A stretch of DNA of 52,613 nucleotides from Pirellulales bacterium (GCA_044337765.1 JBIIMX010000001.1:1-52613); one strand, 5' to 3'; positions 8,039 to 50,672 are shown, numbered from the stretch's first letter. Program-made: numbers and translations. The notes: generated from the sequence alone by a model not told the origin.

Positions 8039-8112
8039 GCCCTCGTAGCTCAATTGGATAGAGCGTCAGCCTCCGAAGTTGAAGGTTACAGGTTCGATCC
8101 CTGTCGAGGGTA
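8039..8112 (+). tRNA. tRNA-Arg (anticodon CCG)
   Basis: Hand-folded 74-nt cloverleaf: acceptor GCCCTCG/CGAGGGT (one G-U pair), D arm GCTC-AATTGGATA-GAGC, anticodon arm TCAGC-CTCCGAA-GTTGA (U33, CCG at 34-36, A37), variable loop AGGTT, T arm ACAGG-TTCGATC-CCTGT, discriminator A. CCA is not encoded. Confidence 0.9.
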
Positions 8113-9376
8113 TTGGGTTTGTTGGTCTAGCTCGCGAAGTACGCGTTTTCCCGCGTGTTTCGTGAAGGTCGGACGGCGTCGGTCTGCCGCTGTCGGCTCC
8201 TGACTGTGCCGGGTAGTGTGCCGGGTTGGAGGCGGCTCGGTCGAAGTCGGCGTCGGTCGTCGAGAGGTAGTGGCTCCGAGCCACGGCGGCCGTATGGCCG
8301 AGCCAAGCGAAGACGACGTGAGCCGGGAACGTCTCCAAGAGCTCGATCTCCCGGCTGGCCCTGAGGTTCACGAAGAGCTTCGGCCACTTCGGCACGCTGG
8401 CACGCTCCAGCACTTGCTCGGCATACCGCCGGAGGTTCCGGCCGCCGCGAGCTCGTGGCACGACGTAGACGGCTCCCGGCTCGGCCGCGTCGAAGGCCGC
8501 CTCAAGGTATGGCCGGAGCTCGGCGAAGATCGGCACGATCCGCTCCTCGTGGCCGGCGAGGTGCGACTTCTTCGGCACGCGTACCGTGATTCTGTTTCTC
8601 TCCCAGTTCACGTCGCTCCACTTGAGCTCTTCAAGCTCGCTCGGAATCCGTAGGCCGGCGTATCGAGCGAAGGCGAAGATCAGTCTCCAGTCGTGATTCG
8701 GGCAGGCCGCCAGCACGGCCTCAATCGTCTCACGCTTCACGAAGTGCTTGCGGCTCGGGTTGGCCTGAGAGCCGCACCTAACCTCCTCAAACGGATTGCG
8801 GTCGATCACGCGACGCCGGACGGCGGCCTTGAAGAACTGCCGAGCACGTCGAAGATCGACCGACGCTGACGCTGGAGCGAAGCCCTTGCGGGACTTCGTC
8901 GGAGCCAGGAGCCACGCCTTGTAGTCGTCGGCGTCTCCTTCGTGGATCGTGTCGATCCGACGCTCCTTGCCGAAGAACTCCTCCAGCAGTCGTCGAGCTC
9001 GGCCGTAGTTCAAGGCCGTCATGCGCTTTTGCTGGCCGAGCGTGCTGAAGTAGTGCTCCAAGAAGGAGCCGACCGTCCACTCGATCGCGGTGATCTTCTC
9101 GCGTGGCTCTACGAGGCCTACTTTGGCCAGCTTGTCGTGGATCACGTCGCCGATCTCGGAGAGCCAGCCGGCCGTCTGGGAGTCGATCGGGAGGCCGGCG
9201 ATCTTCGCGGCCAGGAGCGACTCGATCTTGAGCTTCACGCTCTCGGCGAGCTTCTTCGGCAGCTTGCCGAGCCGGATCGTCTGCCGCTTGCCAGTCGGAT
9301 CGACGAAGAGCACGCGGTACGTCGTCGTCGTCGAGCCGTCGTCGAGCTTGAACTTTTCAGTGCTGAGCGTGGCCAC
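8066..9376 (-). CDS. int: Tyrosine recombinase / phage integrase
   Basis: 436 aa. Catalytic-domain motifs ARYAGLRIPSELEELKW, HLAGHEERIVPI, LRASREIELL and WLGHTAAVARSHYL (the R..H-x-x-R..H/W..Y pattern). The last 47 nt of the ORF overlap the tRNA-Arg 3' half. Confidence 0.9.
   Translation of the reverse strand: MATLSTEKFKLDDGSTTTTYRVLFVDPTGKRQTIRLGKLPKKLAESVKLKIESLLAAKIAGLPIDSQTAGWLSEIGDVIHDKLAKVGLVEPREKITAIEWTVGSFLEHYFSTLGQQKRMTALNYGRARRLLEEFFGKERRIDTIHEGDADDYKAWLLAPTKSRKGFAPASASVDLRRARQFFKAAVRRRVIDRNPFEEVRCGSQANPSRKHFVKRETIEAVLAACPNHDWRLIFAFARYAGLRIPSELEELKWSDVNWERNRITVRVPKKSHLAGHEERIVPIFAELRPYLEAAFDAAEPGAVYVVPRARGGRNLRRYAEQVLERASVPKWPKLFVNLRASREIELLETFPAHVVFAWLGHTAAVARSHYLSTTDADFDRAASNPAHYPAQSGADSGRPTPSDLHETRGKTRTSRARPTNPIPSTGIEPVTFNFGG
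8093..8116 (+). repeat. att core repeat (tRNA-proximal copy)
   Basis: Exact 24-nt match to 15742-15765. Covers the T-loop to the 3' end of tRNA-Arg plus 4 nt. Confidence 0.85.
8206..8228 (+). repeat. Tandem 11-mer GTGCCGGGTAG / GTGCCGGGTTG (candidate integrase arm-type sites, left end)
   Basis: Two copies with a 12-bp period, 90 bp inside the left att core and within the int 3' coding region. The same 11-mer pair occurs at 15680-15702. Confidence 0.4.
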
Positions 9377-9623: not shown

Positions 9624-10193
9624 CTACCGATCCTTGAGACGCTCCGCCGGAACCCAGCGGACGCGAGCCGACCTTGCGGCCTCCAGCACGTCCGGCGGGA
9701 GCTTCAGTCGCTCGGCCACGAGCTCGACGGCCTGCCGCCAGAGCGTCTCCGCGTCCGGCCTCTTGGCCAGGAGGGACAGTATCGCCGGCTTGTGAGCCGC
9801 GACGCGAGCCTTGAGAGCCGCGTCCACGGCAGACGGTGGCGAGAGCCGTAGCCGGCCGTCCACGGCCTCCACGGCCACGCCGGCGGCCGCCAGGTCGTCG
9901 AGCACTTGGTCGGCGTCCACGAGCTCTACGAGCACGTCGCCGTGGCACGGCAGCGGTTTGCACCAGCACGCGAGCCGCCGGCCTCGTAGCTCGTGGAGAC
10001 GCCGCAGGAGCTCCGGCTGGCCGAGGACGTGCTGACGAAACTTCTCGATCACGTCGTCCCTCGTGCCGTCCACGTCCACGACGTACGGATTGGCGAAGGC
10101 CGACTCCGCGAGTCCTCGCCGATTGTTCTTGCGTCCGACGTAGACGGCGTCGCCGAGCTCGTCGCATTTGAGATTCACAACGCGGCCGCTCAT
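9624..10193 (-). CDS. DUF4326 domain protein
   Basis: N-terminal half matches the DUF4326 pattern: VYVGR...ANPY...DDVIEKFRQHVLGQPELLRRLHELRGRRLACWCKPLPCHGDVLVELV. Confidence 0.7.
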   Translation of the reverse strand: MSGRVVNLKCDELGDAVYVGRKNNRRGLAESAFANPYVVDVDGTRDDVIEKFRQHVLGQPELLRRLHELRGRRLACWCKPLPCHGDVLVELVDADQVLDDLAAAGVAVEAVDGRLRLSPPSAVDAALKARVAAHKPAILSLLAKRPDAETLWRQAVELVAERLKLPPDVLEAARSARVRWVPAERLKDR

Positions 10194-12628
10194 AGTTCGA
10201 GGTACTCCTCGTCGGCCATGGCCTGCCGCTCCGCTCGACTGTCGGCGTCAGCGTCAGCGGAACCCAGTTTCGCGGCCTGCTTCGGAGGTTGTGCTGACGC
10301 TGCCTGCCCGATGAGCACGAAGAGCCGTGTAGGCCGACCTCCCTCGCCGCTCGTCGGCTTGTCGATCCATAAGCCACGGCCGGCGTCCACGAGCCTCTGG
10401 AGAGCTTCTCCTGCCGCGTTGGCGTCGGCGATCGACCGGACTCCAGCAATCACGTCGCGGACGGCCACGCTGCCGCCGTGAGCGATCACGAAGGCCGCCA
10501 GCCGGTCGTCGGCCTGACGGGTCGCTCGCTCGGCCTCACTCTCGGCGAGCAACGCGTACACGCGACGCGTCTCGTGCTTGAACCAGCCGGTGAGCTCGAT
10601 CGCGGCAGCCATGCTACCGGCGTCGATCTCGCCGGCGACGACGTGCTCTCCAGCCGCGAGCCTGGCCTCGTGGACGACCAGTGCCAACCGGCCAGCGGTC
10701 TCCTCAAGCTTGCTCCACGCGGCCGCCAGGTCGCCGGTGAGCTCGTTCGTCTCGACGTTGTGCTCGTCGTGAAACTCCACGAAGAGCGTCTCGGCGTCGC
10801 GGTTGAGCCTGACGATCCTCGACTCCTGTCGGCCTGCCTTGAGCTCGTGCTCCAGGCTGTAGAGGTTGTCGAGCACGCGGACGAAGTCGCCTCTCGTCGT
10901 CCACCCGATCGTGTCGGTTGTCCACCGCTTCGGTCTGCGTGGTGGAGCCGCCAGTAGCAGTCGAGCCAGGAGTCCGCTCTCTCGCCGTTCAATGCCGAGA
11001 GCACGTCGGAGCACGCCTGGCTGGATCGTGCCAGTCAGCCAGACGGCGGCCTGCCGAATGTGGACCGAGCGACCAGTCCGCCTAGAGACGTTGTGAGAGC
11101 GGCCGCTGTAGGCCTTGAGAAAGAGAGCTTCGTCGGCGGCTGGCGTGCCGTTGTACCGACCCATACTGCCAAGGAGGCCGGAGAACTCGTCGGTGGCCAC
11201 GATTAGGCCTCGCGGGTTGTCGGCCAGTGCCGAGACAAGAGCCTCGCTTGTGGCGTCCTCGACGAGCACGCGACGTTGGATCGGCTCACGCGGTCGCTTC
11301 GGTGGCGGATCGTCGCTCTTCTTCGCGTGCCGCCAGGTCGAGCGTGCTTTCTCGTAGTCCTCGACCTCGACCTCGTAGGTCTGCCGCTCGGCCGCGTACT
11401 CCTCGTAGAGCCGATCCTCACGCTCGCGGACGTGATCGAGCGACACGTCGGCGGCTGGCGACTTCTGAGAGCCGCTCTCCGCGACCGTCACTGGCCAGAC
11501 GATCGGCAGAGCACTCCAGCCTGGCTTGAGCTCCACGCGTCGCGTCGTGCCGACCGCCGATCCCAGTACGGCCAGGAGCGGTAGGCTCACGAAGGCCTCG
11601 TCGCAACCGATCGCACGAGCGGCCTCTTCGATCAGCGTCGAGACGGCCTTCGGCAGAGCCGGCGTCGGGAACGGCCGCCAGGCCTCGACCGACGAGCTCG
11701 TGGAGGACGTGCTCGGCGTAGCCGGCGTCGTGCTGGCCGTGGCGGCCTTCGGCTTGAGCGGCTCGGTCTCGACAGCCTGCCGCTCGATCTTCTCGCGTAG
11801 AGCCTTGAGCTCCTCCTCGTCTCGGCAGGCCTCGTACAAGTCCGCCACGTCGCCTCCTGGCTCCAGGCCGTCGAGCTCGACGACGCGGACCGTCGCTGGA
11901 GGATCGAGCTTGTGGAGGATCGTGGCCACGTCTGCCGCGTACTGGCGGCCGGCGGCGTCGTTGTCCGGCAGGATCACGACCTCACGGCCGGCGAGCGGCG
12001 ACCAGTCGGTTTGTCTGGCCGCGTTGCTGCCACCGGAGCTCGTCGTGGAAGCAAGGCCGAGGCCGCCTTCAAGGAACAACGCGTCGCAGCACTTCTCGCC
12101 CTCGACGACGTAGACGCGATCGGCGTCCTCAAGAAACTCGACTCCGAGGAGCGGCCGTGGCTCGGTCATATGCGTTAGCCGCCAGCCGTCAGCGTGGCGG
12201 CTGAGCGGACGTATCACCTTCTCGCCGGCCGGCCGATCCCAGCGGAGCACGCGGCCGACTGGCTTGATCGTGACTGGATCGCGGTACTCCCACGAGCGAG
12301 TCGGTTTGCCGAGCGTTCGCTCGTAGGCCTTCTGAGCCTCGTTGGCGGTCGGATACGCCTTGCTTGTCGCCTTGCTCGACGAGCTCTTCTTGGCTGGCGT
12401 GGAAGTGGCGTCAGCGTCGAAAAGATCACGCTCTTCCAGGCCGAGAGCCGCGACGATCTTCTTGTGATCGCATCCGGCGTGGCACTTGAGGAGTACGCGG
12501 CCGTCGTCGCCGACGCCGATCGACAGACTGGCTTGCCTGTCCTCGTGAGCCGGACAACGTGCCGACCAGCCGCTCGAGGTTTTCTTGACGCTGTCGAACT
12601 TCGTCAGGAGCTTGGTAGCAGCACTCAT
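10190..12628 (-). CDS. Primase (Zn-finger + Toprim) fused to a DUF3987-type helicase-like domain
   Basis: 812 aa. Zn-binding SARCPAHEDRQASLSI...LLKCHAGCD. Toprim motifs VYVVEGEKCCDAL and VVILPDNDAAGRQYA. The large C-terminal region is typical of P4/satellite-type replication proteins. Confidence 0.8.
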   Translation of the reverse strand: MSAATKLLTKFDSVKKTSSGWSARCPAHEDRQASLSIGVGDDGRVLLKCHAGCDHKKIVAALGLEERDLFDADATSTPAKKSSSSKATSKAYPTANEAQKAYERTLGKPTRSWEYRDPVTIKPVGRVLRWDRPAGEKVIRPLSRHADGWRLTHMTEPRPLLGVEFLEDADRVYVVEGEKCCDALFLEGGLGLASTTSSGGSNAARQTDWSPLAGREVVILPDNDAAGRQYAADVATILHKLDPPATVRVVELDGLEPGGDVADLYEACRDEEELKALREKIERQAVETEPLKPKAATASTTPATPSTSSTSSSVEAWRPFPTPALPKAVSTLIEEAARAIGCDEAFVSLPLLAVLGSAVGTTRRVELKPGWSALPIVWPVTVAESGSQKSPAADVSLDHVREREDRLYEEYAAERQTYEVEVEDYEKARSTWRHAKKSDDPPPKRPREPIQRRVLVEDATSEALVSALADNPRGLIVATDEFSGLLGSMGRYNGTPAADEALFLKAYSGRSHNVSRRTGRSVHIRQAAVWLTGTIQPGVLRRALGIERRESGLLARLLLAAPPRRPKRWTTDTIGWTTRGDFVRVLDNLYSLEHELKAGRQESRIVRLNRDAETLFVEFHDEHNVETNELTGDLAAAWSKLEETAGRLALVVHEARLAAGEHVVAGEIDAGSMAAAIELTGWFKHETRRVYALLAESEAERATRQADDRLAAFVIAHGGSVAVRDVIAGVRSIADANAAGEALQRLVDAGRGLWIDKPTSGEGGRPTRLFVLIGQAASAQPPKQAAKLGSADADADSRAERQAMADEEYLEL

Positions 12629-20061: not shown

Positions 20062-20112
20062 TGGAGTGGCAAAATCAAACGGTGGCACATGGAGCGAAAA
20101 AGGGAATCGAGC

Positions 20113-23001: not shown

Positions 23002-24984
23002 TCATGGCACGAGGCTGCTCGCGTCGAACCAGAAGGCAGCCCCGCCTCGGGACTTGAGGGCCCTGCTCAAGCCGTCGACTCGCTCCGACAATCGACCAAT
23101 CTCCCTGGCAGCTGCCGGTCGATCCTTTTCGTAGGCGACAGAGGGGAACGGCAGCGCGGCCTTCAGCCGGAGCCCGAAAATATCCTCTAGGAAAACGCCG
23201 ACACTTCTGCTCTCCACAGGCATGCGATTCCATGCTGCACGCATGCGATCGCCGATCAGCCGATGCTTCGACACAGACTCGAGATCATCCGCCAGGGCTG
23301 CGATCACCGCATTCCCGTCGATCTGTTCACCACGGGCGAACGTGTCGCGCAGGTCGTCGAACATCCGGCCCACCGCCTCCTGCTCCGGTTCGGCGAGCAG
23401 GAAGAGTTCTCGGAATTGGGGCTGAGCCAACCCTGCGTCTTTCGACGTCGGGTGGAAGAGCCAACCACGTGACGGAACAAAGTATTGGAGATATCGATCG
23501 TCGAACGCTGCACGATCCAGCCCGCGTTTTTTCATGGCCTCGAGGAGTTTGGGCCCCGGGGCCGTGTACGGGGTCCGGGATTCCATCCGTTCGACCACAC
23601 GGCGTAGTTGCAGCCGCCGCAATTCAGTGGCCTCGCTCGCTGCCTGGAGCGCCTCCTTCAAGTTGTTGGTTCCAGCTTCCTGGTAGACGACGAGTCCTTC
23701 CGTATCCCCCAATTGTTTTACGGCCTCCGCAACTGCGGCACTGTCTTCCTTGAACAGCATCTCGTCCGGTGTCCTGCGCCGTCCCACGTGCATGAAGAAG
23801 ACAGACGCCCCCGTGTCCTCGATTTTTCTCGCGATGTCCGCCACGAGCGCCGGTTTCGCCGGGTCATCAGGCTCGTGGCCCGTATCCCCGAGCACCGTGA
23901 CGAACAGCGTGGCCCCGCGTTCGAACTCGAGGTTTGCCAAGCAATCGCGCAGCCCCTCCAGCATCCTCTCCGGTGGATTGGCGTACTCGCTGGGGGGGAG
24001 GAAGTGTCCGAGCTTCTCCACATCGTCGGCGAGCGACTCGACGTCCGTGGCCTCCTTCACATCTTGGAAGTCGCCCAACGTGACGCGAAGTTCGCCCTCG
24101 TCTGGCGTGTCCGCGGGACCGTCCCGATACGAACACACCGCCATTTTCACGGGCGTCGGTCGCGCTTCGGCGACCTCGCCCGCGTCGCGGATGAACTTTG
24201 CGACGATTTGACTGAACGGCGCCATACTCACCGTATCGTCGATGACAAACACCATCTCGAGCCCCTTTTCCTCGGCGGCCATCTCCCTGCGCTTTTCCAG
24301 CAGCTCCCTGTCAACTGGTCCACCGCAGACGGCCCCCATGTGGACGAGTCGATTCTCGATCGGGACGCCGAATCGGAATGTTGGAGTCGTATCGGGGTGC
24401 TTCCGATCCCGCTTCTCGGGTGAGATTCGCAATTCGACGAATGGAACCACGTCGTCAATCGTGACCGGCTCCCAGGTCTCCGCCCCCTCCCGTTCGTTCA
24501 CTACGACCGTTTTCTCGGCTCCCTGGAGGTTGCCGTTTACCTGCGCCACAAGCCGCTCGTAACTCTCCTTCGAGTCGTCGTGCAGGTCGGCAAGCCGCTC
24601 GCGCTTGCGTCGGGCGAAGGTGTATGCATAGCGACTCTGGAGCAGGTGCACGTGCACGCCGCGTGCCCATCCCAGCGGCGATTCGGCCGTGTAGCCGTCC
24701 TGCAGAAGGTGCCACTCGGCACTGGCCGAGTCGGTCCGCGTCTCGACGACGAAATACGGCCGAAAGAGAGGCAGCACCGTGTCCAGTGGCTTGCCGCCGG
24801 GGCCATCGTGAACCCGTAGCTCGTCGATGTCCTCGCCATCCAGTCTTCGGACGCCCATCGCCAGCTGTGGCACGAGCGAATCGCCCACGAACCCGCATGC
24901 GGACGGAGGCGCCGCCGTAACAGCCGACGCCGTAGCCCAGCAGGCCGCAACGCACACGAGTGTTTTCTGCCACCCGCTCATCAT
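23002..24984 (-). CDS. Exported von Willebrand factor A (vWA) domain protein V1 (paralog of 40155..42149)
   Basis: 660 aa. Signal peptide TLVCVAACWATASAVTA. MIDAS-like MVFVIDDTVSM plus downstream VLGDTGHEPDDP. Many blocks are shared with V2. Its start overlaps the C1 stop (ATGA). Confidence 0.8.
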   Translation of the reverse strand: MMSGWQKTLVCVAACWATASAVTAAPPSACGFVGDSLVPQLAMGVRRLDGEDIDELRVHDGPGGKPLDTVLPLFRPYFVVETRTDSASAEWHLLQDGYTAESPLGWARGVHVHLLQSRYAYTFARRKRERLADLHDDSKESYERLVAQVNGNLQGAEKTVVVNEREGAETWEPVTIDDVVPFVELRISPEKRDRKHPDTTPTFRFGVPIENRLVHMGAVCGGPVDRELLEKRREMAAEEKGLEMVFVIDDTVSMAPFSQIVAKFIRDAGEVAEARPTPVKMAVCSYRDGPADTPDEGELRVTLGDFQDVKEATDVESLADDVEKLGHFLPPSEYANPPERMLEGLRDCLANLEFERGATLFVTVLGDTGHEPDDPAKPALVADIARKIEDTGASVFFMHVGRRRTPDEMLFKEDSAAVAEAVKQLGDTEGLVVYQEAGTNNLKEALQAASEATELRRLQLRRVVERMESRTPYTAPGPKLLEAMKKRGLDRAAFDDRYLQYFVPSRGWLFHPTSKDAGLAQPQFRELFLLAEPEQEAVGRMFDDLRDTFARGEQIDGNAVIAALADDLESVSKHRLIGDRMRAAWNRMPVESRSVGVFLEDIFGLRLKAALPFPSVAYEKDRPAAAREIGRLSERVDGLSRALKSRGGAAFWFDASSLVP

Positions 24985-26666
24985 TTCATACCCTGCCCAA
25001 GGTTCAGCCGAGCGTCTGGTCGGGCTCCGATGGCATCGAGAACGTCGTCAATGTGCTCCACGAGCTCATCCGATTTTGGTGAGCGGGCCGTGACCTGGCC
25101 GTCGCTGACCTCGTCCTTCATCGCCTCCCCGAGCGCCCGGGCCCGTTCCGGATCGGCGTCTGGGCAAAGGAACGACACGGCACCGCAACCTTCGGAAGCC
25201 AGGGAACTGAAGACATGGAGGTTGGTCGCCGACACCAACTCCCGCTCGGGCCAGACGACGACCGTGCGGATGTCGGGGTTTGCTGAATCACGTCGCGCGC
25301 GGACGATGGTCTCCACGACCCGCTCCACCTGGCTCTCGAGGTCTTGGCGGGAAGTGGTGAATGGTTTGAACGCTTTGGCTGCCTCCGGCGGTTCGCTGCT
25401 CTCGTTGAGCAGCGTGTCGGTGCCATCGGCGTTGATCACGATCGCACCCTGATTGTAGGGCTTGCGATCCTTGATTGCTTCCCGGACTTGAGCCGTGATG
25501 ACATCACCCGGTTCGTGCAGACGCTGATCGTTCACGAGGTAGATCATGAAGTCGGCCGGTTTCGGCTTGCCACCGCCAGCTCCACCACCGCCAGCTCCAC
25601 CACCGCCAGCTCCACCACCGCCAGCTCCACCACCGCCAGCTCCACCACCGCCTGATCCACCACCGCCTGATCCACCACCGCCTGATCCACCACCGCCTGA
25701 CACACCACCACCTGGTCCACCCGTTGGTGCGCCACACACGCCGCACGAGCCACCTTTGCCATCACAGGGGCCGCACTTCCCGCTTCCGCGACACGCGGGA
25801 GAGTCGCCGCCTTTTCCCTTGCATGCATCGCATGAGCCCGAGCCTCTGCATGCCTTGCACGGGCTGCCGGCGCCCTTGCATTTGTCGCACATTCCGCTCC
25901 CAAGGCCGCAGGCCTCGCAGCCACCGGATTTGCCACCACATTTGGGGCATGCCGGCTTGCCGGACGGCTCGCATCCGCATCCCTTGCCGCCGCACTTCTT
26001 GCAACTGCCACTCTTGCCGCACGAAGCGCAACCTCCTTCTTTGCCTTTACAGTCGCCGCATGCTCCCTTGCCGTCACACTGATCGCAACGATCACCCTTG
26101 CCCTGGCACCGATCGCACTCAGGGCGTGTGGAGTTGCAGGCATCGCAGCCACCCTTGCGGTCCCCGCATTTCGCACAGGGCTTCCGGCACTTCTCGCATC
26201 CGCCGGACTTGTCGCCACACTGCGCGCAGGCCGCTTCGTCAGCAGGAACGGCTACGGGAACCCCGCCGGCAGCACCAGCTTGGCCGTTCCGCACGACGAA
26301 TGGGCCCAGTCGCACCATCCGCTCGCCAGCGGGGATGACTCCACCCGACTTGAAGGCCAATCCCCGCATGGCCAGCGTCACAGGGTAATCATCTTTGAGC
26401 GGGCGTGTGATCTCGGCCACAACCCAGAATGGCTCCCCCTGACGCCAACTTCCGATCCGTTGGCCCTCCTCATCTTCGAGCTGAAAACGGACCGCGGCCA
26501 GCGAGCTCGTGTCACCGCTGAGTGCGTATGAGGAGCACGAAAGCCCCACCATCGCTGCGGTCAGCGCGACGTGCAGCAGGCGCCATCTTCCGATTGCCGG
26601 GTAAAACGATCGGTCTGTAGCCATGTCGAGTTCCCTGTTCACGATTGCGCTTTTCCCGAGCTTCAT
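24981..26666 (-). CDS. Exported/anchored protein C1: conserved N and C domains split by a DnaJ-type CxxCxGxG zinc-finger-like array and a (G4S)n(G4A)n linker (paralog of 38374..40158)
   Basis: 561 aa. Hydrophobic WRLLHVALTAAMVGLSCSSYALSG. 16 CxxC motifs between aa 147 and 311, for example CDKCKGAGSPCKACRGSGSCDACKGKG. Then GGGGS and GGGGA repeats, then a C-terminal domain shared with C2 (IRTVVVWPERELV, VSFLCPDAD). The start could instead be the internal Met at MATDR. Confidence 0.8.
   Translation of the reverse strand: MKLGKSAIVNRELDMATDRSFYPAIGRWRLLHVALTAAMVGLSCSSYALSGDTSSLAAVRFQLEDEEGQRIGSWRQGEPFWVVAEITRPLKDDYPVTLAMRGLAFKSGGVIPAGERMVRLGPFVVRNGQAGAAGGVPVAVPADEAACAQCGDKSGGCEKCRKPCAKCGDRKGGCDACNSTRPECDRCQGKGDRCDQCDGKGACGDCKGKEGGCASCGKSGSCKKCGGKGCGCEPSGKPACPKCGGKSGGCEACGLGSGMCDKCKGAGSPCKACRGSGSCDACKGKGGDSPACRGSGKCGPCDGKGGSCGVCGAPTGGPGGGVSGGGGSGGGGSGGGGSGGGGAGGGGAGGGGAGGGGAGGGGAGGGKPKPADFMIYLVNDQRLHEPGDVITAQVREAIKDRKPYNQGAIVINADGTDTLLNESSEPPEAAKAFKPFTTSRQDLESQVERVVETIVRARRDSANPDIRTVVVWPERELVSATNLHVFSSLASEGCGAVSFLCPDADPERARALGEAMKDEVSDGQVTARSPKSDELVEHIDDVLDAIGARPDARLNLGQGMK
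25569..25721. repeat. Perfect 15-bp in-frame tandem repeats encoding the (G4S)/(G4A) linker
   Basis: On the plus strand, GCTCCACCACCGCCA occurs five times, followed by CCTGATCCACCACCG-type units (three or more). This lies inside the C1 coding sequence. Confidence 0.9.
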
Positions 26667-28270: not shown

Positions 28271-28314
28271 ATGCTCACTTTTGCCCGTTGTCTCGTTGTC
28301 TCAGGAGAATCACC

Positions 28315-38377: not shown

Positions 38378-40158
38378 AGGTTACCGTGTCTCGTTCAGGC
38401 GAACCGCAGTTATCGCCGTTCATCATAGCCACGCCGTGGGCGGTGTGGGTCTACGTGTTGTCGCTCGTTTGCTGCCTTCTGCCTCAGGGCGAGAAAAGCG
38501 AGCCTTTAGAAAGATCCGTCCTCACCGTCTCGAACTCCACAGTTCATGTGCCTGAGAACGCACCAAATGGGCTCGCGAACGCGGTGGCTTTCGAACTAAG
38601 CAAGCCGCTCGACTTTCGCCTCGAGGTGCCGGTGACCGTGACTGACGGCTCGGCGAGGCTGGGGGAACACTACGCCATGCGGCGCCGGCCGCGGGTGATT
38701 TTCGAGGCAGGTTCCAAGCAGGGCGTGCTGTCTGGAGACGGCGATGGATGCGACGTGGTCATCACTGACGACCACGAACTGCTCGACGGGGAGCCACGCT
38801 CTTTCGACATCACGCTCGGAACGGTTGAAGGCATCGTGGAACTGGACGCGAGCCGATCGACGTGCCGCGTCAGCATCGATGATGACGAGAAACCACCCAC
38901 CTCTCGCGTCAAGATCCGGTTCGCTTTCAGTGGTGGCGAATTGACGGAGTCGCAGGTCGCAGGTCATTCGCTTTCGGTGCAAGCGGAAAAGGCCCCGGAG
39001 GAAAAGTCGGAGATGACCGTCGTCGTCCAACTGCAGTCCGGCAAGGAGCCGAAGGATCTTGGACGCAAGACTTTCTTCCTCGAACCAGGGCAGACCGCAC
39101 TCACGTTCCGCGTGTCCGACGTTGTGCCGCTCGAACAGCTGAAAGCCTTCGGCCTGACCGATGACGATGCTCCTGGGCCATCTTCGGAGATCATCGTGCG
39201 GCTGCGCGGCCAGCATCCGCTCTACGCCGACGAACCACGGGACCTTACGTTCCGGGTGACCGACAACGACCCAGCCGCGAAACTGTCCATGGCGATCCAA
39301 GACACGGCCGGCCAACCACTCGACCGAATCCTGCCCGGCTCCCCCTTCTGGGTCGTCGCCGATGTGGATCGCGGACTCCGCCTCGGATTGCCCCTTCAAA
39401 TCAACCTCGACAAGGGCGGCCCGATTGTCACCGGCACGCTCGCCGCAGGAGAGCGAAGCGTCCGTCTCGGACCACTGAGTGCAAGCCCGGGCCCTGAAAG
39501 GACGATCGAGGTCGCGATGGCGGTGCCCGCGAACGCGGCTGCGCGACCCTTCGTCGAGCTGCCCGTTCCCGAGAGTCTTCCCAAGGGGCCCAAGGACGAC
39601 AGTCGATTCGCGGTGATCGTCGTCAACACGTCGCGACTGCGGGAACCGGACAATGGCATCCTGGAGGCCGTGTGGAAATACATGATACCGAACGGAAAAT
39701 CTTCCTTCCGGAATGGCATGCTGCTCGTGGGGCCGGCGCGACCGAAGGTTCTTTCGGGAGAGACATTGCCGGTTGAGAGTGTGGGCTTCACCCCGCTCGT
39801 CAAGGACGGCCAGGGCGTCTCAGCGCAACTGAACAAGGTCTTGGAAGTCGTTTCGTACGTGCGGCAGGAGAACCAAGATCCCACCATCCGCATCGTCGTT
39901 GTCTGGGCAGAACGCGGCCTCGAATCGTCAGTCGCGGCATCCCGACTAAAGCCCATCGACCGGGAGAAGTATGGACCGATCTCGTTCCTCTGCCCGAGCG
40001 CTGACGTCGATGGCAGGGGTGCGATACGAGATGCCCTCGTCGGAGTCGGCAGCGCCGATGTCGAAAGCGTGACCGTTCGCTGCCCGGACGTGGACGAATT
40101 ATCCGAGCACATTCGCTGGGCGATCGATGGATTCCGAGCACCGGAAAAGACCAAGTGA
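38374..40158 (+). CDS. Exported/anchored protein C2 with Calx-beta-like repeats (paralog of C1)
   Basis: 594 aa with an N-terminal hydrophobic segment. Calx-beta-like unit: VPVTVTDGSARLGEHYAMRRRPRVIFEAGSKQGVL...VVITDDHELLDGEPRSFDITLGTVEG, with further similar units. The C-terminal two-thirds aligns with C1 (GSPFWVVADV, AGERSVRLGP, IRIVVVWAERGLE, ISFLCPSAD). Confidence 0.8.
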   Translation: MKVTVSRSGEPQLSPFIIATPWAVWVYVLSLVCCLLPQGEKSEPLERSVLTVSNSTVHVPENAPNGLANAVAFELSKPLDFRLEVPVTVTDGSARLGEHYAMRRRPRVIFEAGSKQGVLSGDGDGCDVVITDDHELLDGEPRSFDITLGTVEGIVELDASRSTCRVSIDDDEKPPTSRVKIRFAFSGGELTESQVAGHSLSVQAEKAPEEKSEMTVVVQLQSGKEPKDLGRKTFFLEPGQTALTFRVSDVVPLEQLKAFGLTDDDAPGPSSEIIVRLRGQHPLYADEPRDLTFRVTDNDPAAKLSMAIQDTAGQPLDRILPGSPFWVVADVDRGLRLGLPLQINLDKGGPIVTGTLAAGERSVRLGPLSASPGPERTIEVAMAVPANAAARPFVELPVPESLPKGPKDDSRFAVIVVNTSRLREPDNGILEAVWKYMIPNGKSSFRNGMLLVGPARPKVLSGETLPVESVGFTPLVKDGQGVSAQLNKVLEVVSYVRQENQDPTIRIVVVWAERGLESSVAASRLKPIDREKYGPISFLCPSADVDGRGAIRDALVGVGSADVESVTVRCPDVDELSEHIRWAIDGFRAPEKTK

Positions 40159-42149
40159 CACAATTCACGCTGCTGATTCGGACATCGTTTTTGGTATGTG
40201 TCGTCGCACCCGCCTGCATAGTGGCAGCAGGCGGACGGAATGCCCATGCGCAGAGCGGTGCGCCACGCGCATCGCCGCCATCGACCGCGGCACACACCAC
40301 GTTTGTGCCGGACACGCTGATCCCGCGGCTCGCCATGGGGGTGAGACGAGGAGTCAAGGACTCGAGAGAGGTCGCCGAATTGAGGGACCGACCGGGCGGT
40401 GCGATCGTAGGACGAGTTCCACTGTTTTCAGCGATGTTCGTCCACGCTGAACAACGACTCGACTCCCAGGACTGGGTTCTGCTCGCCAGCGGGTACGCGG
40501 GCGACAAGGCAGGCAAGCGGGGCTGGGTGCCCCGCTCCGATATCGAGGTGTTTTCAACCCGCTACGGCTACGTCTTGCACGACACGGGAAACGCGACGGA
40601 GTTTTTCCCGACGCCCGGGGACGCCTACGCGATCGTCCCCGGAATCGGCCCCAAGGGCCAAGCGACGCCCTCGCAGTCGGCCTCCGTGCTTGGGCGGCCG
40701 GACGCCGCTGGCTGGCAGCCGTTGCGGCGAACTGACCAGATGCCCTTCATGGAGTTGGAATTTGATCGGCGGTCTGGTTATCCGTCGACCACTCCATCGA
40801 TTGCGACGCCGTACGACGGCCGGCTTGTACGCGTCGGAGTCATTTGTGGCGGCCCGGTCGACAAGGTGGAGCTTGCGAGGCTCAAGGAAGAGGCCGACCG
40901 GAAGCCCGCGATCGAGATGTTGTTTGTCGTCGATGAGACGTTGAGTATGGGCCCATTCTTCCCTGGTGTGTCTGACTTCATCCGAGCGGTAGGCCAGGCG
41001 GCGGGCAACGGCCGGCAACCCCGAATCGCTGTTTCGTACTACACGGATGGACCAGCAGGTGAAAGAACGACCTGTGAGCCTTTGCGAAACGCGACGCCAC
41101 AGTTTGTCACGGCATTGGCGAATTCGGTGAAGCAGCACAAGCAGAAGATTCCCCCTGGAGACTTCATCAATCCGCCGGAGCGGATGCTTGAGGGGATGCG
41201 GGACGCGATCCAGAAGGCAGGATTTACAAAAGGTAACACGTCGATCGCCGTGGTGATCGGCGACACCGGCCACGAGCCGACGGACCCTGACAAGAAGAGA
41301 TTGCTCGACGGAGTGGCCGGAGTGGTTGCTGACCACGGCCTCATGGTCTTCTTCGTGCATGTAGGCCTAGCGAACAATCAAATGAACCCGGCTCAACAAC
41401 TGTTCAAGGATGACATGCTTGCATTGCAGACGCGTGTCGCCAAGCGTGACAAAGCTCTTGCCGATCGCGTCATATACACCACGGCGAATGCCGGCAACCT
41501 GACCGCGGAACTCGAGGGATTACGGCGCGAGGCTGACCGATTGGCCGAGCAGGCCCAGTTGATGGCTGGCCGTATCACCTCGCGCAACACCAACACGATG
41601 CCGGGGCCGGCCCTGGTCGCCACGATGAAGCAGGACGGCGTGACCTTGGCCCAATTCAACGACGCGCATCAGCAAATCTACGTGCCAAGCTATGCGTGGA
41701 TGGCATCACCGAGAGACGCGGGGGCGAATGGCGGATCTCGCGCCCGTCTGTCGAGATACATCTGCCTCGCCGCGGAGGAACAACAGGCACTCGCCGCCCT
41801 GCTGGAGTCGGCGCAGAGGAATGTTGACGCTGGATTGGCCGTCGATCACGACAATGCCGTGCAGGCGTTCGTGCAGTCGCTGCGGGCTGCAACGACGGGC
41901 TCAGCCGCCGTGGAAGCCGCTCACGCGAACTGGAAGAAACTGGGGCCCGATCGAACGGCCGGCGGATTTCTCCACAAATTCCTTGGCCTCGGCATCCAAG
42001 CAGAGATGCTTTTCAGTTCGAGCCCACCAGGCAACACTGAAGAGATGGCCGATGCGAAAAACTCACTGCAGGCCCTGACGACCGTGGTACGCGAGGCCAG
42101 CCGTGACAAAGACAGGTTTTGGTTCGAGGCCACCAGCCTGGCGCCATGA
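40155..42149 (+). CDS. Exported vWA domain protein V2 (paralog of V1)
   Basis: 664 aa. Signal-like FLVCVVAPACIVAAG. MIDAS-like MLFVVDETLSM and VIGDTGHEPTDP. Shares LAMGVRR, ICGGPVD, NPPERMLEGMRD and FWFEATSLAP with V1. GTGA overlap with C2. Confidence 0.8.
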   Translation: MTQFTLLIRTSFLVCVVAPACIVAAGGRNAHAQSGAPRASPPSTAAHTTFVPDTLIPRLAMGVRRGVKDSREVAELRDRPGGAIVGRVPLFSAMFVHAEQRLDSQDWVLLASGYAGDKAGKRGWVPRSDIEVFSTRYGYVLHDTGNATEFFPTPGDAYAIVPGIGPKGQATPSQSASVLGRPDAAGWQPLRRTDQMPFMELEFDRRSGYPSTTPSIATPYDGRLVRVGVICGGPVDKVELARLKEEADRKPAIEMLFVVDETLSMGPFFPGVSDFIRAVGQAAGNGRQPRIAVSYYTDGPAGERTTCEPLRNATPQFVTALANSVKQHKQKIPPGDFINPPERMLEGMRDAIQKAGFTKGNTSIAVVIGDTGHEPTDPDKKRLLDGVAGVVADHGLMVFFVHVGLANNQMNPAQQLFKDDMLALQTRVAKRDKALADRVIYTTANAGNLTAELEGLRREADRLAEQAQLMAGRITSRNTNTMPGPALVATMKQDGVTLAQFNDAHQQIYVPSYAWMASPRDAGANGGSRARLSRYICLAAEEQQALAALLESAQRNVDAGLAVDHDNAVQAFVQSLRAATTGSAAVEAAHANWKKLGPDRTAGGFLHKFLGLGIQAEMLFSSSPPGNTEEMADAKNSLQALTTVVREASRDKDRFWFEATSLAP

Positions 42150-42932: not shown

Positions 42933-43616
42933 TCAGAACCGGGCTCCCGCAGCCCCGACGGCGAGCGCCCACCAGACCCCCGTCGTCACGCACCCGAGCG
43001 TACCAATACCGCCGAGGATTGCACCCGCGATCGCCAGGCCGCGATTCGCCTGATTCGTCCCGTTTAAAGCAACGAGACTCAAAATAAACCCCAGTGGTGC
43101 GGTGCAGCCGAGCATGGAGAGTACGAACCCGGCAATGGCCATGCCGTTGGATGCTTCCGCTTTTGGCTCTTCCCCCTTTCCGACGAACAGAGCCAATTCA
43201 GGAATCGATCGTACGACGACCCACTTATCCCACCCCTGTTTGCAGACAACATCGTCTTTTTTGATGATGCCGCTGGCCAGATACTGCTGCAGGGTTGCAA
43301 GAGGCACCGGGTCCGGTTGCTGCGTGCCGTGCAGCACGATAAACCAAAGATCCTGGCTTGGGCTTAGCTCGGGGTTGGTTATCGCAGGCACCGAGGCCCC
43401 GTTCTCAATTACGGGCGCGGGGACAACACTCGGTTTCCGGAATATCTCCGGAAAATCACCGGCCTTTCTCCAGTCAACGCCGTCTCGCGAAACTTCCGAA
43501 CGGCTGCCCACCATGCCACGTTGCACTCGCTGCTGCATCTCGGACAGCGCAAATGGACCGAGCGTACTGCCTCGCACCCGGAAGAAATAGGGACGGGAAT
43601 CGCCTGTATCGTTCAT
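42933..43616 (-). CDS. Tandem GYF_2 (DUF4339) domains + DUF4190-like membrane domain protein
   Basis: I use the internal ATG at 43616 (MNDTGDSRPYFFRVRGSTLGPFALSEMQQRVQRGMVGSRSEVSRDGVDWRKAGDFPEIF). Second GYF_2: LWFIVLHGTQQPDPVPLATLQQYLASGIIKKDDVVCKQGWDKWVVVRSIPELA. The C-terminal Gly/Ala-rich double-TM region (GMAIAGFVLSMLG...GLAIAGAILGGIG) is typical of DUF4190. Confidence 0.7.
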   Translation of the reverse strand: MNDTGDSRPYFFRVRGSTLGPFALSEMQQRVQRGMVGSRSEVSRDGVDWRKAGDFPEIFRKPSVVPAPVIENGASVPAITNPELSPSQDLWFIVLHGTQQPDPVPLATLQQYLASGIIKKDDVVCKQGWDKWVVVRSIPELALFVGKGEEPKAEASNGMAIAGFVLSMLGCTAPLGFILSLVALNGTNQANRGLAIAGAILGGIGTLGCVTTGVWWALAVGAAGARF

Positions 43617-43656
43617 AGCGGGTAGCTCGCACAACCAAGAGGCGTCACCGGGTAGA

Positions 43657-45051
43657 TCATGCCCCTGACCGCCTGACCGCAGATATGAAGAAGACGCCAA
43701 CGACAAAAAGAATAAACACGAGCAGCAGGCCAACAACGGCGGCGATCGCAATTTTTTCCTTGTAAACGATGCGATCACGGCTCGCTTTCACCAAGTTACG
43801 GCAGGCCTCGAGTTCGGCGAGGCGAGCATTCGTCGAGGTGGGCACCAAGCCCGGACTCCTTTCGCACAGCCTTTTCGTCGCAATACGCAGGTCGCTCTCA
43901 CGTCGTAGCCACTCCGCGGACCGCTGCTTGAACTCCTCCCAGCCGACTGCAGATTCGGGGGCTTTTTCGATCAGTTTCTGAATGTCGTCTTCTTTCTTGC
44001 CGAATGCCGCCCTTCCTTCCTCGAACTGCTCCTGTTGGGCAAGCCACGCGAGCGACTGCTTGGCCGACTTTTCGACCGCCTTTGCCTGCTCGAGAAACTT
44101 CATTTCGATGGCGACCGCTGACGTCTCCGGCACCGAATTGGCAAGCTGCAGTGCCTGGACGAAGTCTTTTCGGAGCGAGAGAAAATGCCCCTTCGCCTGG
44201 ATCGCGGCATTGAGCATCACTGGAAACGAAGGCGAGTAGACATTTTGAATGTGGGACAAGTCGCGACACCTCACTGCGAGCAGCGAGGCGGCCTCCTCGA
44301 GCGAATGAATTCCGTCGCGACATGTAAAAAGGTGTGGCACGGCCTTGGTGAGCGCGGCAAGAGGTCCTGAGAGCTGCCCCTCCCAGTCCACGGCTTTCAC
44401 CTCCTCAATAAGGCGCGCAAGTTTCGTAAAGTTCCGTGTCTCAATTGCAGCGCGGACTTCCGCCTCAATCTGACCGGCTCGCTGGCGGCGGATCGGCGCA
44501 ATCATGTCGGTCCAGATTCCGCGGCCCGGGTCGATATTGCGGATCGAGGTGAGGAGCGTCAGCCGCGTGCCAAGATCACCACGAAGGAGGACATTTCTCC
44601 GGAACGCATCGAGTTGATCTTTCAACCAGTGACCGGAGACGCTCTGGGAGGACAATTCCTCGAACATGGCGCCTACCATGCCCCGAAGTTCGCGGTCGAA
44701 CTGCGGCACCGAAACTTCACGTGCATCGAGCGCTTCCTTCCAAGCCGCCCAGCCATCCCTGTCAAATGGCTCGAGCAGTCGCTCTCCCACTTCGAAGAAG
44801 CCCTCAGCGTGCCACTGCTTCGCCTCGTCGCGCAGTCCACGGCTGGCGAGTTGCCAGCACGTATAGAGTGATGCATTCCACTCATCGACAGCCTCCGTCC
44901 ACTCCGCCATCCGGCCTATCAAAAGATCCATACCTGTTTCGCCGCCTATATCGAGAGCGGTTTTGACCGCGGCAGCAATCTCGCGCCACTGCTCCAGCCG
45001 CTCATACGTGATGGCCGGAGGCGTGCCCGTGTTTCCGTCGGGTGGACTCAT
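43657..45051 (-). CDS. All-helical, C-terminally tail-anchored protein (possible GTPase-associated helical component)
   Basis: 464 aa. Composition suggests a helix-rich protein. Single C-terminal TM (IAIAAVVGLLLVFILFVVGVFFISAV). ATGA overlap with the upstream GAP1-like gene. Confidence 0.65.
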   Translation of the reverse strand: MSPPDGNTGTPPAITYERLEQWREIAAAVKTALDIGGETGMDLLIGRMAEWTEAVDEWNASLYTCWQLASRGLRDEAKQWHAEGFFEVGERLLEPFDRDGWAAWKEALDAREVSVPQFDRELRGMVGAMFEELSSQSVSGHWLKDQLDAFRRNVLLRGDLGTRLTLLTSIRNIDPGRGIWTDMIAPIRRQRAGQIEAEVRAAIETRNFTKLARLIEEVKAVDWEGQLSGPLAALTKAVPHLFTCRDGIHSLEEAASLLAVRCRDLSHIQNVYSPSFPVMLNAAIQAKGHFLSLRKDFVQALQLANSVPETSAVAIEMKFLEQAKAVEKSAKQSLAWLAQQEQFEEGRAAFGKKEDDIQKLIEKAPESAVGWEEFKQRSAEWLRRESDLRIATKRLCERSPGLVPTSTNARLAELEACRNLVKASRDRIVYKEKIAIAAVVGLLLVFILFVVGVFFISAVRRSGA

Positions 45052-48341: not shown

Positions 48342-48363
48342 AAAACAAATGCACCGTGGTTCG

Positions 48364-49886: not shown

Positions 49887-50672
49887 ATGAGTGAAGAGTG
49901 GTACGTCGGCAGAGGTGGACGGCAGACAGGCCCCTTCACTCTGCAGCAATTGAGGCAGATGGCAGCCTCTGGCCATTTGTCGAAGGCCGATCTGATTTGG
50001 AAGGACGGTTTTCCGAACTGGGTTCCTTGCTCGTCAGTCACTGATCTCTTTCCATCGGCTTCGGGTGTTTCCCCCACGTCATTGCATCGGCCTACACCCA
50101 GGCCAACGGCGCCACCTCCATCAGTTTCGGTGCGAAGCGAGGAAGGCCTTGGCACTTCGGAGGCGTCCACAGGAGCGGACCCGGGTTGGGCATTCCAGAC
50201 AACGCCCAACGCGGCCACAATTCCTGGCGCACCACTTCAACTTGCGGAATTTCTACCACGGGTCGGAGCCGCATTGCTCGACGGGCTGTTTGTCAGCCTG
50301 ATCGGCTGCATTCCGAACGGGGTTATTGTCGGACTTCTGTTGGCCGCCATCAACAATAACCGCGACAATGCCGAAGCTCTGGCTTTTCTGGCCAACATTT
50401 TCACCAGTGCCATCGGATTCCTCATTGGGGTCGTCTACTGCGTCACACTTGATGCCTCTGCCAAACAGGGTACGTGGGGCAAGCAGATCGTCGGCCTCCG
50501 AGTGACCGACCTTGATGGCCGCAGGCTCAGCATCGGCCGCGCCATCGGCCGTTTCTTTGCACGTTATCTCACCATCTGCACATGCGGTATCGGCTACCTG
50601 CTTCCACTGTTCACACAAAAGAGGCAGACACTGCACGACCTGATATGCGGCTGCATTGTTGTCAACAAATGA
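49887..50672 (+). CDS. GYF_2 (DUF4339) + RDD family membrane protein
   Basis: EEWYVGRGGRQTGPFTLQQLRQMAASGHLSKADLIWKDGFPNWVPCSSVTDLF is the GYF_2 domain. The RDD domain shows RVGAALLDGLFVSLI...GTWGKQIVGLRVTDLDGRRLSIGRAIGRFFARYL. Confidence 0.75.
   Translation: MSEEWYVGRGGRQTGPFTLQQLRQMAASGHLSKADLIWKDGFPNWVPCSSVTDLFPSASGVSPTSLHRPTPRPTAPPPSVSVRSEEGLGTSEASTGADPGWAFQTTPNAATIPGAPLQLAEFLPRVGAALLDGLFVSLIGCIPNGVIVGLLLAAINNNRDNAEALAFLANIFTSAIGFLIGVVYCVTLDASAKQGTWGKQIVGLRVTDLDGRRLSIGRAIGRFFARYLTICTCGIGYLLPLFTQKRQTLHDLICGCIVVNK

Follow-up and report, generated by a model that had tools for sequence, protein, structure and literature searches.

The cysteine-rich segment of C1, a predicted secreted protein encoded in a 52,613-nucleotide stretch of DNA from a Pirellulales bacterium (GCA_044337765.1 JBIIMX010000001.1:1-52613; hereafter the window, with positions counted from its first letter), is built of nine 14-residue modules with four cysteines, and not of sixteen equal repeats. 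From N- to C-terminus, C1 is composed of a signal peptide, a beta-sandwich, this Cys4 array, a Gly-rich tether and a von Willebrand factor A (vWA)-like domain. The array is a selected, functional domain under purifying selection, and it is the conserved state of the protein clade to which C1 belongs. We propose that it could be a cross-linked, beaded stalk on the extracytoplasmic side that presents the vWA-like head to a partner protein carrying a metal ion-dependent adhesion site (MIDAS), an explanation to which we assign a probability of roughly 0.5.

A reading of the window made earlier from its sequence alone (the sequence-only reading) had reported sixteen CxxC motifs between aa 147 and 311 of C1, i.e. 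at window positions 25734..26228. A regular-expression scan reproduces the count, the tetrapeptides and the coordinates. In order, the tetrapeptides are CAQC, CEKC, CAKC, CDAC, CDRC, CDQC, CGDC, CASC, CKKC, CPKC, CEAC, CDKC, CKAC, CDAC, CGPC and CGVC, starting at aa 147, 157, 164, 174, 184, 194, 203, 213, 222, 240, 250, 260, 270, 279, 298 and 308. This stretch of 165 aa contains 35 of the 38 cysteines of C1 and consists of 25% Gly, 21% Cys and 14% Lys. The pattern exceeds what is expected from a Cys-rich composition. The 16 CxxC motifs compare with 7.1 +/- 2.1 in shuffles of the 165 residues, and C-x2-C-x6-C-x2-C is matched in register 9 times versus 0.26 times after shuffling (maximum of 4 in 20,000 shuffles). 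The context is exactly CxxCxGxG for 7 of the 16 motifs and CxxCxG for 9. The open reading frame (ORF), whose possible disruption had been named as a weak point, is intact in orthologs of C1 from other samples, namely P0001 (85% identity, locus L013), P0002 and P0040. Locus L001 was excluded as independent evidence, being identical to the window across 21.7 kb.

The nature of the repeated unit is given by the spacing of the motifs. From one CxxC start to the next, the steps alternate between 10 and then 7, 9 or 10 residues. The step of 10, corresponding to CxxC-x6-CxxC, is invariant at all odd steps in all orthologs, the linkers between such pairs vary (3, 5 or 6 residues), and the first and last elements of the arrays are x6-linked CxxC pairs. 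The fixed x6 within pairs and the variable linkers between them therefore identify the unit as a four-cysteine module of 14 residues. From 132 modules in 23 proteins we derived the family consensus CxxCGG[RK][PG]GGCxAC (C-x2-C-x6-C-x2-C). Over these 132 modules, the share of Gly is 88% at position 6 (+2 after the first CxxC), 83% at position 9 and 58% at position 5 (+1), position 7 is R or K in 73%, and GG directly precedes the second CxxC. Seven of the nine modules of C1 are perfect. Module 5 reads CKKC-x4-CGC, and module 8, which reads CDAC-x6-SPAC, keeps three cysteines, the total for the array being odd (35). The serine concerned, Ser289 (TCT, window 25800-25802), is a cysteine (TGT) in the closest ortholog, P0001 of L013, and could be either a real substitution or a single-base assembly error. 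The net charge of the residues other than Cys amounts to +0.9 to +2.3 per module in every ortholog. Only 2-7 hydrophobic residues are present per array. With almost none of these, the array has no core and could be ordered only through its cysteines. His is rare throughout the arrays, and the CxxCH signature of multihaem cytochromes c is absent from C1. Variant clusters of five cysteines, C-x2-C-x3-C-x2-C-x2-C, close the arrays of P0003, P0008 and P0010 (also at L021 and L023), as for example in CVRCQGKCGECKDC, which hints that metals or disulfides are arranged otherwise there.

A homolog search with C1 deprived of its Gly tether, against 5.8 billion protein clusters, returned 22 homologs, all from metagenomes or metagenome-assembled genomes (MAGs). 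The sources are MAGs of Planctomycetota (Pirellulales, Planctomycetaceae, Planctomycetia and two labelled Kuenenia), and one further MAG is labelled Alphaproteobacteria, for which a binning error is possible. In each of these 22 non-C2 homologs a CxxC array occupies the corresponding alignment position, flanked by the same beta-sandwich and C-terminal domain, so that in array-bearing family members the array always lies between the beta-sandwich and the vWA-like head. The homologs contain 8, 12, 14, 18 or 20 CxxC motifs, with 17 in the two closest C1-type proteins; the full-length orthologs all have even counts (8, 12, 14, 18, 20), some of which are not divisible by 4. Subclades keep a stable number of modules. 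Most of the homologs measure 660-800 aa; at the N-terminus they have a transmembrane (TM) helix and domains totalling about 350 residues that are missing from C1. Family members are recognized by the last beta-sandwich together with the C-terminal domain motifs LVN[NTD][QS]RL[HR]EP, VVW[PA]ER and GP[IV]SFLCPDAD, and by a gene for a MIDAS-type vWA protein that comes after theirs. These marks are present in C1 and in its paralog C2, also encoded in the window, and gene order supports them in the window and at L002, L003, L006, L011 and L013.

That C2 has no array, as the sequence-only reading had noticed, is correct. C2 contains 6 cysteines and zero CxxC, and in the family alignment about 10 aa ('PANAAARPF', roughly 39547-39573) stand in place of the array and the Gly-rich linker. 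From this comparison it had been concluded that the array is a lineage-specific insertion in C1, and this conclusion has to be abandoned. C1 and C2 are homologous over aa 373-548 (BLASTP, 30% identity, E 1e-15) and aa 52-123 (35% identity) of C1. C2 also aligns to full-length array-bearing proteins across the N-terminal 370 residues and the C-terminal domain, with the junction coinciding with the site of the array. A search with C2 gave 17 proteins of about 590 aa (57-100% identity), none of which has a CxxC. In a tree of the C-terminal domain (neighbour-joining, midpoint-rooted) C2-type and array-type proteins form two clades. C1 falls within the array-type clade together with P0001 and P0002, adjoining P0003-P0013, and the C2 clade is sister to the whole. 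Moreover, at five other loci (L002, the contigs of P0009 and P0014, L003 and L006) it is an array-bearing protein that occupies the operon slot held here by C2. Since C1 is nested among array-bearing proteins, the array long predates C1, and C2 is the exception. C1 itself descends from an array-bearing ancestor by truncation at the N-terminus and is equipped with a signal peptide. The ancestral protein appears to have been divided between two old paralogs, C2 with the membrane anchor and the N-terminal domains, and C1 with the array and the tether. Both loss of the array in the C2 clade and its absence there from the beginning would fit this tree, which has no outgroup.

The same comparisons bear on the idea that the array is a low-complexity or slippage sequence devoid of specific function, a recent insertion simply tolerated in C1. 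The adjacent Gly tether is truly encoded by a near-perfect 15-bp tandem repeat, and confidence of AlphaFold2 (AF2) models is low in the array, both of which would suit such an origin. The DNA of the array, however, contains as its sole tandem repeat a weak 12-bp, 2-copy match (Tandem Repeats Finder (TRF), score 36), which means that the modules are old and diverged. The Cys positions and the x6 spacing are conserved among orthologs at 36-85% identity, and the excess of in-register matches over shuffles given above speaks against it as well. Between C1 and its L013 ortholog the array evolves with a ratio of nonsynonymous to synonymous substitutions (dN/dS) of 0.21 at dS 0.17, with 0.08 and 0.17 for the flanking domains, and 34 of 35 cysteines are kept, two of them through synonymous changes. 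This explanation is already contradicted and very improbable; conservation of the Cys spacing and the dN/dS value also settle the doubt, voiced in the sequence-only reading, that the region might be noise.

Of the domains flanking the array, the beta-sandwich has its homolog, according to the alignment, in the last of the N-terminal domains of C2 and of full-length members. A profile of the N-terminal region found no relative in the PDB. A Calx-beta domain, suspected there from motifs such as 'GSARLGEHY...VVITDD...EPRSFDITL', is a tentative lead, for which neither C2 nor P0005 gave a Pfam match. On the other side, the tether corresponds in DNA (25570-25721) to about 10 copies of the 15-bp repeat with 94-98% matches (TRF). 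In the orthologs the tether measures anywhere from 0 to about 95 aa, which suggests that its length varies through slippage. The C-terminal domain is the most conserved part of the family. Its modelled structure weakly points to a vWA-like fold: the best Foldseek matches in the PDB are weak (E 5e-3 to 1e-2, probability 0.9-0.98, TM-score 0.45-0.52 relative to the target), and all are vWA domains, namely integrin alphaM and alphaX I domains, collagen VI and TFIIH p44. No Pfam VWA profile matches C1. The MIDAS motif DxSxS...T...D is absent from this domain, whose first strand and loop, FMIYLVNDQRLHEP, is conserved as LVN[ND]QRLHEP.

We consider it probable that the array is exported, as the sequence-only reading had supposed. 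This is based on the predicted signal peptides of C1-type proteins, on the predicted secretion of their translationally coupled partners, and on homology. The N-termini of C1-type proteins display a basic n-region, a hydrophobic stretch of 13-17 residues and small residues at -3 and -1. Candidate cleavage sites lie after SYA and before L in C1, after SNA and before R in P0001, and after AWA and before M in P0040, and P0002 has the same layout. By hydropathy and charge, the N-terminal flank of the hydrophobic segment of C1 carries +6/-3 and its C-terminal flank +1/-1. A lipobox was considered for these signal peptides, as a Cys is found in 3 of 4 sequences, but the residues at -3 to -1 are unfit and we make no such claim. 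Signal-peptide-like N-termini are also seen in vWA1 and vWA2 (the MIDAS-type partners encoded next to C1 and C2, respectively), in the vWA protein of L002 and in a 456-aa protein of the nearby operon. For the dynamin-like, Hsp70-like and 1033-aa proteins of this operon, no hydrophobic segment exceeded the cut-off used.

The occurrence of the module outside the family was assessed in two ways. An exhaustive phmmer search with the array in 1.84 billion representative proteins yielded 7 hits at E<=1e-3, comprising two family members, four unrelated long CxxCxGxG proteins (P0041, P0042, P0044 and P0045, E 4e-6 to 9e-4) and one spurious repeat protein. In addition, 241 million metagenome records were scanned at the DNA level with a pattern for the canonical module, TGY-N6-TGY-GGN-GGN-MGN-CCN-GGN-GGN-TGY-N6-TGY. 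Eleven loci matched, 9 of which encode C1/C2 family members and 2 a chance 38-aa ORF. Together, these results indicate that the module is specific to the C1/C2 family. The sequence-only reading had proposed to look for proteins with long tandem CxxCxGxG arrays; four unrelated ones do exist, but the module itself is confined to this family. Re-scored locally with phmmer, the four CxxCxGxG arrays reach 35-43 bits against a maximum of 3.8 bits in 200 shuffles (z about 10). At the sequence level, the C1 array therefore shares with these arrays the order in which CxxC, Gly and period recur, whether inherited or convergent, a likeness in pattern that by itself is no proof of homology. P0042, P0044 and P0045, with dozens of tandem CxxCxGxG motifs, represent poly-knuckle proteins of a class of their own, which seems not to have been studied.

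The resemblance to the zinc-binding domain of DnaJ, which the sequence-only reading had stressed, holds at the level of the motif, with the seven exact CxxCxGxG, and not at the level of domain membership. With the Pfam profiles DnaJ_CXXCXGXG (PF00684), BSD2_CRD and DUF7895, neither C1 nor its array taken alone, nor P0003 and P0015, gives a match at E<=10. As controls, P0042 is detected with 46.9 bits by BSD2_CRD and 36.7 bits by DnaJ_CXXCXGXG, both above the gathering score (32.7 bits for PF00684), and DUF7895 gives 38.9 bits for P0045 (above the gathering score) and 22.1 bits for P0044 (below). HMMER negatives are weak for such a composition, as a module profile run against 5.8 billion proteins passed nothing, not even family members, and bias handling can hide matches. 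With hhalign, the module alignment obtained a probability of 26% versus P0042 and 2% versus the cysteine-rich domain of E. coli DnaJ (sequence entered by hand). C1 has no J domain and no DnaJ_C domain by Pfam or NCBIfam. The cysteine-rich domain of DnaJ is a hairpin of four motifs, in which motifs 1 and 4 and motifs 2 and 3 share two zinc ions. CxxC counts of 14 and 18, together with the fixed spacing in adjacent pairs, point to units of two motifs and not to the four-motif hairpin. Membership of the DnaJ cysteine-rich domain is therefore not supported. More generally, neither C1 nor the array alone has a match in Pfam (even at E<=10), NCBIfam or PADLOC. A sequence search of the PDB gave 0 hits at E<=10 for the array, and only engineered Gly-Ser linkers, via the Gly tether, for full-length C1.

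It could nevertheless be imagined that the array stays in the cytoplasm as a DnaJ-type client-binding domain, acting as co-chaperone for the Hsp70-like ATPase of the operon. The presence of this gene in the same cluster, the seven exact motifs and the ambiguity of the positive-inside rule in full-length members would agree with such a role. However, C1-type proteins have canonical signal peptides and their translationally coupled partners are predicted to be secreted, the J domain is missing, PF00684 is silent on the array while it detects P0042, the hhalign probability versus DnaJ is 2%, and 14 or 18 CxxC do not fit four-motif modules. We regard a cytoplasmic co-chaperone as improbable.

In the explanation that we prefer, each module would be held by its four cysteines, most likely around one metal ion (Zn2+) bound through two knuckles as in DnaJ or BSD2, or alternatively through two disulfides. 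The modules would form a stiff, beaded stalk whose length, 4 to about 10 modules, is specific to the lineage. Together with the flexible Gly tether, this stalk may hold the vWA-like head away from the beta-sandwich or the membrane anchor on the periplasmic side. There, the likely partner of the head is the vWA protein of the MIDAS type, co-translated with C1 and predicted to be secreted. In C1 the anchor would be replaced by the cleavable signal peptide. The build of the modules, their conservation, the selection acting on them, their place in the family tree, their confinement to this family and the gene context are observed; that C1 is exported, binds metal, serves as a stalk and pairs with vWA1 is what we infer. 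As to the arrangement of the cysteines, metal coordination has about an even chance, disulfide bonding is plausible but less probable, and anything else seems unlikely. A CxxC with Gly after it is known from rubredoxin and DnaJ as the classic mark of a metal knuckle. This signature, the presence of exactly four Cys per invariant unit and about two compensating basic residues favour one tetrahedral metal site per module. The basic excess would offset a [Zn(Cys)4]2- centre.

Several observations weigh against this proposal. Zn(Cys)4 sites are unusual in the oxidising periplasm, and disulfides are the default for cysteines exported by Sec, so the predicted periplasmic location favours disulfides. 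No zinc-finger profile of Pfam or NCBIfam and no PDB sequence matches the array. AF2 gives a pLDDT (predicted local distance difference test) of 40-55 for the array in the full-length C1 model (30-sequence alignment), and for a four-module segment modelled with a 39-row alignment of module windows it gives a pLDDT of 51 without secondary structure. With the five-Cys clusters of some orthologs (CxxCx3CxxCxxC), not every module is a clean C4 unit. In full-length members, charges of +1 on the N flank and about +2 on the C flank leave the positive-inside rule ambiguous. Finally, a pure spacer cannot be essential to the operon-encoded protein, given that C2-type proteins function with neither array nor tether.

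A closely related possibility is that of an extracytoplasmic rod or envelope cross-linker stapled purely by disulfides, within or between molecules, which would be rigid, protease-resistant, cationic and free of metal. It is in line with the predicted export, with the even number of cysteines in most arrays (16, 24, 28, 34, 36, 38) and with the failure of zinc-finger profiles. The succession of a beta-sandwich, Cys-rich repeats and a vWA-like head would parallel that of integrin beta, and bacteria of the Planctomycetes-Verrucomicrobia-Chlamydiae group have cystine-rich envelope proteins. On the other hand, CxxC with a subsequent Gly is what metal knuckles or redox-active sites usually show, and it is atypical of structural cross-strand disulfides, since residues i and i+3 of a strand face opposite sides. 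The number of cysteines is odd in 6 of 23 arrays (35 in C1; 17 in P0018 and P0020-P0022), which would leave a free thiol, and a charge of about +1.5 per module is explained more simply by compensation of thiolates. We consider a metal-free rod of this kind possible, with less weight than the metal-centred stalk.

That C2 types work without a stalk also keeps alive the view that the array is functional and no mere spacer. It might be a Zn-thiolate/disulfide switch, a module resembling protein disulfide isomerase (PDI) as in LQY1 and CYO1, or a buffer for soft metals, which senses the state of the envelope or acts on the vWA partner. Its 18 CxxC-type sites, counting CGC and SPAC as variants beside the 16 CxxC, would represent a high redox or metal capacity. 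The array has been kept on C1, the soluble paralog with a signal peptide, apart from the anchored C2, which suggests a role independent of anchoring. There is a precedent in LQY1 and CYO1, DnaJ-like zinc-finger proteins that bind Zn2+, possess (CxxCxGxG)n motifs and have PDI-like activity at thylakoid membranes (PMC3800646). Against such a function, no thioredoxin fold or other catalytic context was detected with Pfam, and profile scans found no metal-resistance or Dsb genes in the conserved operon. The conservation of module number in subclades fits a structural element better than a bulk buffer. We find a switch, catalyst or buffer rather doubtful.

C1 and C2 belong to a cluster of eight genes in the operon and an additional, divergent pair (Table 1). 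The start of vWA1 overlaps the stop of C1 by 4 bp. The DxTxS and GDTG motifs are conserved in five vWA orthologs and paralogs, and vWA1 is closer to the vWA protein of L002, the partner of an array-type protein (38% identity), than to vWA2 (33%). In the window, C2 and vWA2 fill the last operon slot, and a second pair, consisting of C1 and vWA1, is read in the opposite direction from the operon head. The same arrangement with two pairs is found at L013. At L002, on the contigs of P0009 and P0014 and at L003 and L006, some of which are partial, the order is a protein of about 415 aa, a dynamin-like protein, an Hsp70-like protein, a protein of about 1,060-1,110 aa, a membrane protein of about 290 aa, the array protein and a vWA protein of about 670 aa. 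The gene order is also present at L011 and L013, and at no fewer than six other metagenomic loci overall. The cluster as a whole has no family assignment in Pfam, NCBIfam or PADLOC; for the operon proteins other than C2 and vWA2, scans with Pfam, PADLOC, NCBIfam and the PDB return just weak matches to Dynamin_N/LeoBC and HSP70/DnaK. An Eleos/Dynamins system (LeoA plus LeoBC) was rejected, since PADLOC gives one weak LeoBC match, to the 700-aa GTPase (E 3.3e-5, 21 bits), and no LeoA. The cluster may be an undescribed envelope system driven by NTPases, in which C1 and vWA1 would be outward-facing parts and the dynamin-like GTPase and Hsp70-like ATPase the cytoplasmic ones. A bolder view, to which we give little credit, is that the chain of up to ten tetrathiolate centres, containing Zn or redox-active Fe as in rubredoxin, constitutes a redox- or metal-gated link, mechanical or electron-conducting, from the outer vWA pair to the inner GTPase and ATPase in a mobile, envelope-spanning machine for signalling or defence.

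The C1/C2 cluster probably forms part of a mobile island and has a conflict system of a known type as its neighbour. A tRNA-Arg and a tyrosine integrase gene are found upstream, and past 16 kb the G+C content is mostly lower (0.56-0.64) than in the first 8 kb (0.66-0.70). A second copy of the tRNA-Arg 3' end is absent from the window, and the far end of the island was not found. Systems centred on GAP1-N2 GTPases with GYF-domain components have been described as conflict systems of planctomycetes by Kaur et al. 2020 (PMC7159879). The genes at 42.9-50.7 kb match these systems, and the eight-gene C1/C2 cluster is not described in that paper. Two neighbours of the GAP1-N2 protein, of 436 and 464 aa, gave no Pfam match. 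Between the primase-like region and the C1/vWA1 pair lies a 719-aa ORF (20089-22248) with a signal-peptide-like N-terminus, which weakly matches squalene-hopene cyclase C-terminal repeats (E 6e-6) and pectic acid lyase (E 9e-5).

Table 1. Coordinates of the features of the window, grouped by C1 and its parts, the C1/C2 cluster and the wider surroundings.
Feature	Position	Strand	Description
C1 gene	24981..26666	minus	561 aa; basis: ORF and translation, orthologs P0001/P0002/P0040, AF2 domain map
C1 Sec-type signal peptide (predicted)	26520..26666	minus	about aa 1-49; basic n-region (..GRWR), h-region LLHVALTAAMVGL, cleavage likely between SYA and LS
C1 beta-sandwich	26262..26501	minus	aa 56-135; AF2 strands 57-124, pLDDT about 70-89
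C1 array module 1	26178-26228	minus	
C1 array module 2	26118-26177	minus	
C1 array module 3	26061-26117	minus	
C1 array module 4	26004-26060	minus	
C1 array module 5	25950-26003	minus	
C1 array module 6	25890-25949	minus	
C1 array module 7	25833-25889	minus	
C1 array module 8	25776-25832	minus	
C1 array module 9	25728-25775	minus	
C1 Gly-rich tether	25572..25721	minus	(GGGGS)4(GGGGA)5; AF2 pLDDT <40, predicted disordered
C1 C-terminal alpha/beta domain	25026..25571	minus	aa 366-547; AF2 pLDDT about 85-94
vWA1	23002..24984	minus	660 aa, secreted (predicted); MIDAS-type IDDTVSM ... GDTG; weak Pfam VWA_2 match
487-aa protein	26807-28270	plus	operon divergent from C1
456-aa protein	28267-29637	plus	secreted (predicted)
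Dynamin-like GTPase	29754-31856	plus	700 aa; weak Dynamin_N/LeoBC matches
Hsp70-like ATPase	31874-34420	plus	weak HSP70/DnaK matches
1033-aa protein	34439-37540	plus	
267-aa protein	37574-38377	plus	about four TM segments
C2	38374..40158	plus	594 aa; N-terminal TM helix, about 360 aa of N-terminal domains, vWA-like domain; no array or Gly tether
vWA2	40155..42149	plus	664 aa, secreted (predicted); MIDAS-type; partner of C2
tRNA-Arg(CCG)	8038-8113		
Tyrosine integrase	8066..9376	minus	directly after tRNA-Arg
DUF3987/Toprim primase-like gene	10190..12628	minus	
GYF x2 + DUF4190 membrane protein	42933..43778	minus	flanks GAP1-N2 protein
GAP1-N2 protein	45048..48383	minus	PF20013, E 1.6e-17
GYF + RDD membrane protein	49887..50672	plus	flanks GAP1-N2 protein

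The CxxC knuckle as a class is known. Pfam, NCBIfam, PADLOC, the PDB and the literature searched contain no description of the present module, of its arrangement in tandem, of its probable location outside the cytoplasm or of the family that hosts it; nor did we find in that literature this combination of genes, the C1/C2 family or periplasmic CxxC arrays. If the modules bind metal outside the cytoplasm, the array would be a rare structural element of the poly-Zn(Cys)4 type in the bacterial periplasm, and might serve protein engineers as a compact and tunable 'ruler'. Should the modules be stapled by disulfides instead, the array would be a new bacterial Cys-rich stalk analogous to those under integrin heads. 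In either case, the array flags an unstudied envelope system of uncultured Planctomycetota, encoded downstream of a tRNA-Arg and an integrase gene.

Several known systems are comparable in part. The DnaJ domain (PF00684) has the same CxxC knuckles followed by Gly in Gly-rich surroundings, and no hydrophobic core either. C1 differs from it by a unit made of an adjacent pair with a fixed x6 loop, by 4 to about 10 such units in tandem in its family, and by the lack of a J domain; besides, DnaJ is cytosolic and C1 is predicted to be exported. The tandem CxxCxGxG arrays of the BSD2_CRD (PF25436) and DUF7895 (PF25433) type, such as those of P0042 and P0045, also are long runs of CxxC with a period of 9-10 residues, but without the alternating spacing (x6 within pairs, 3-6 between them) and without the GG[RK]PGG loop. 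Proteins of the P0042 type have no obvious N-terminal signal peptide on inspection, and P0045 is fused to tetratricopeptide (TPR) repeats. Metallothioneins are likewise very rich in Cys and bind metals, being small cytosolic proteins with C-x-C and C-C clusters. The variant-specific surface proteins (VSPs) of Giardia are CxxC-rich surface proteins of a eukaryote, and the Pfam VSP profile does not match C1. LQY1 and CYO1 resemble C1 by CxxCxGxG-type motifs outside the classical setting of cytosolic chaperones, but they are plant chloroplast proteins with two to four motifs versus 16 in C1, the likeness being one of motif.

In overall design, the array-bearing proteins may be compared with integrin beta, which is tethered to the membrane and combines beta-sandwiches, a stalk of Cys-rich repeats and a vWA-type head that engages a partner subunit. 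The analogy is one of architecture, with no relationship in sequence. The order of the domains and the orientation relative to the membrane differ, and the integrin epidermal growth factor-like (I-EGF) repeats are disulfide-bonded, about 40 aa long and of another Cys pattern. Unlike that of integrin beta, the head of C1 is devoid of a MIDAS, which is found instead on its putative partner vWA1.

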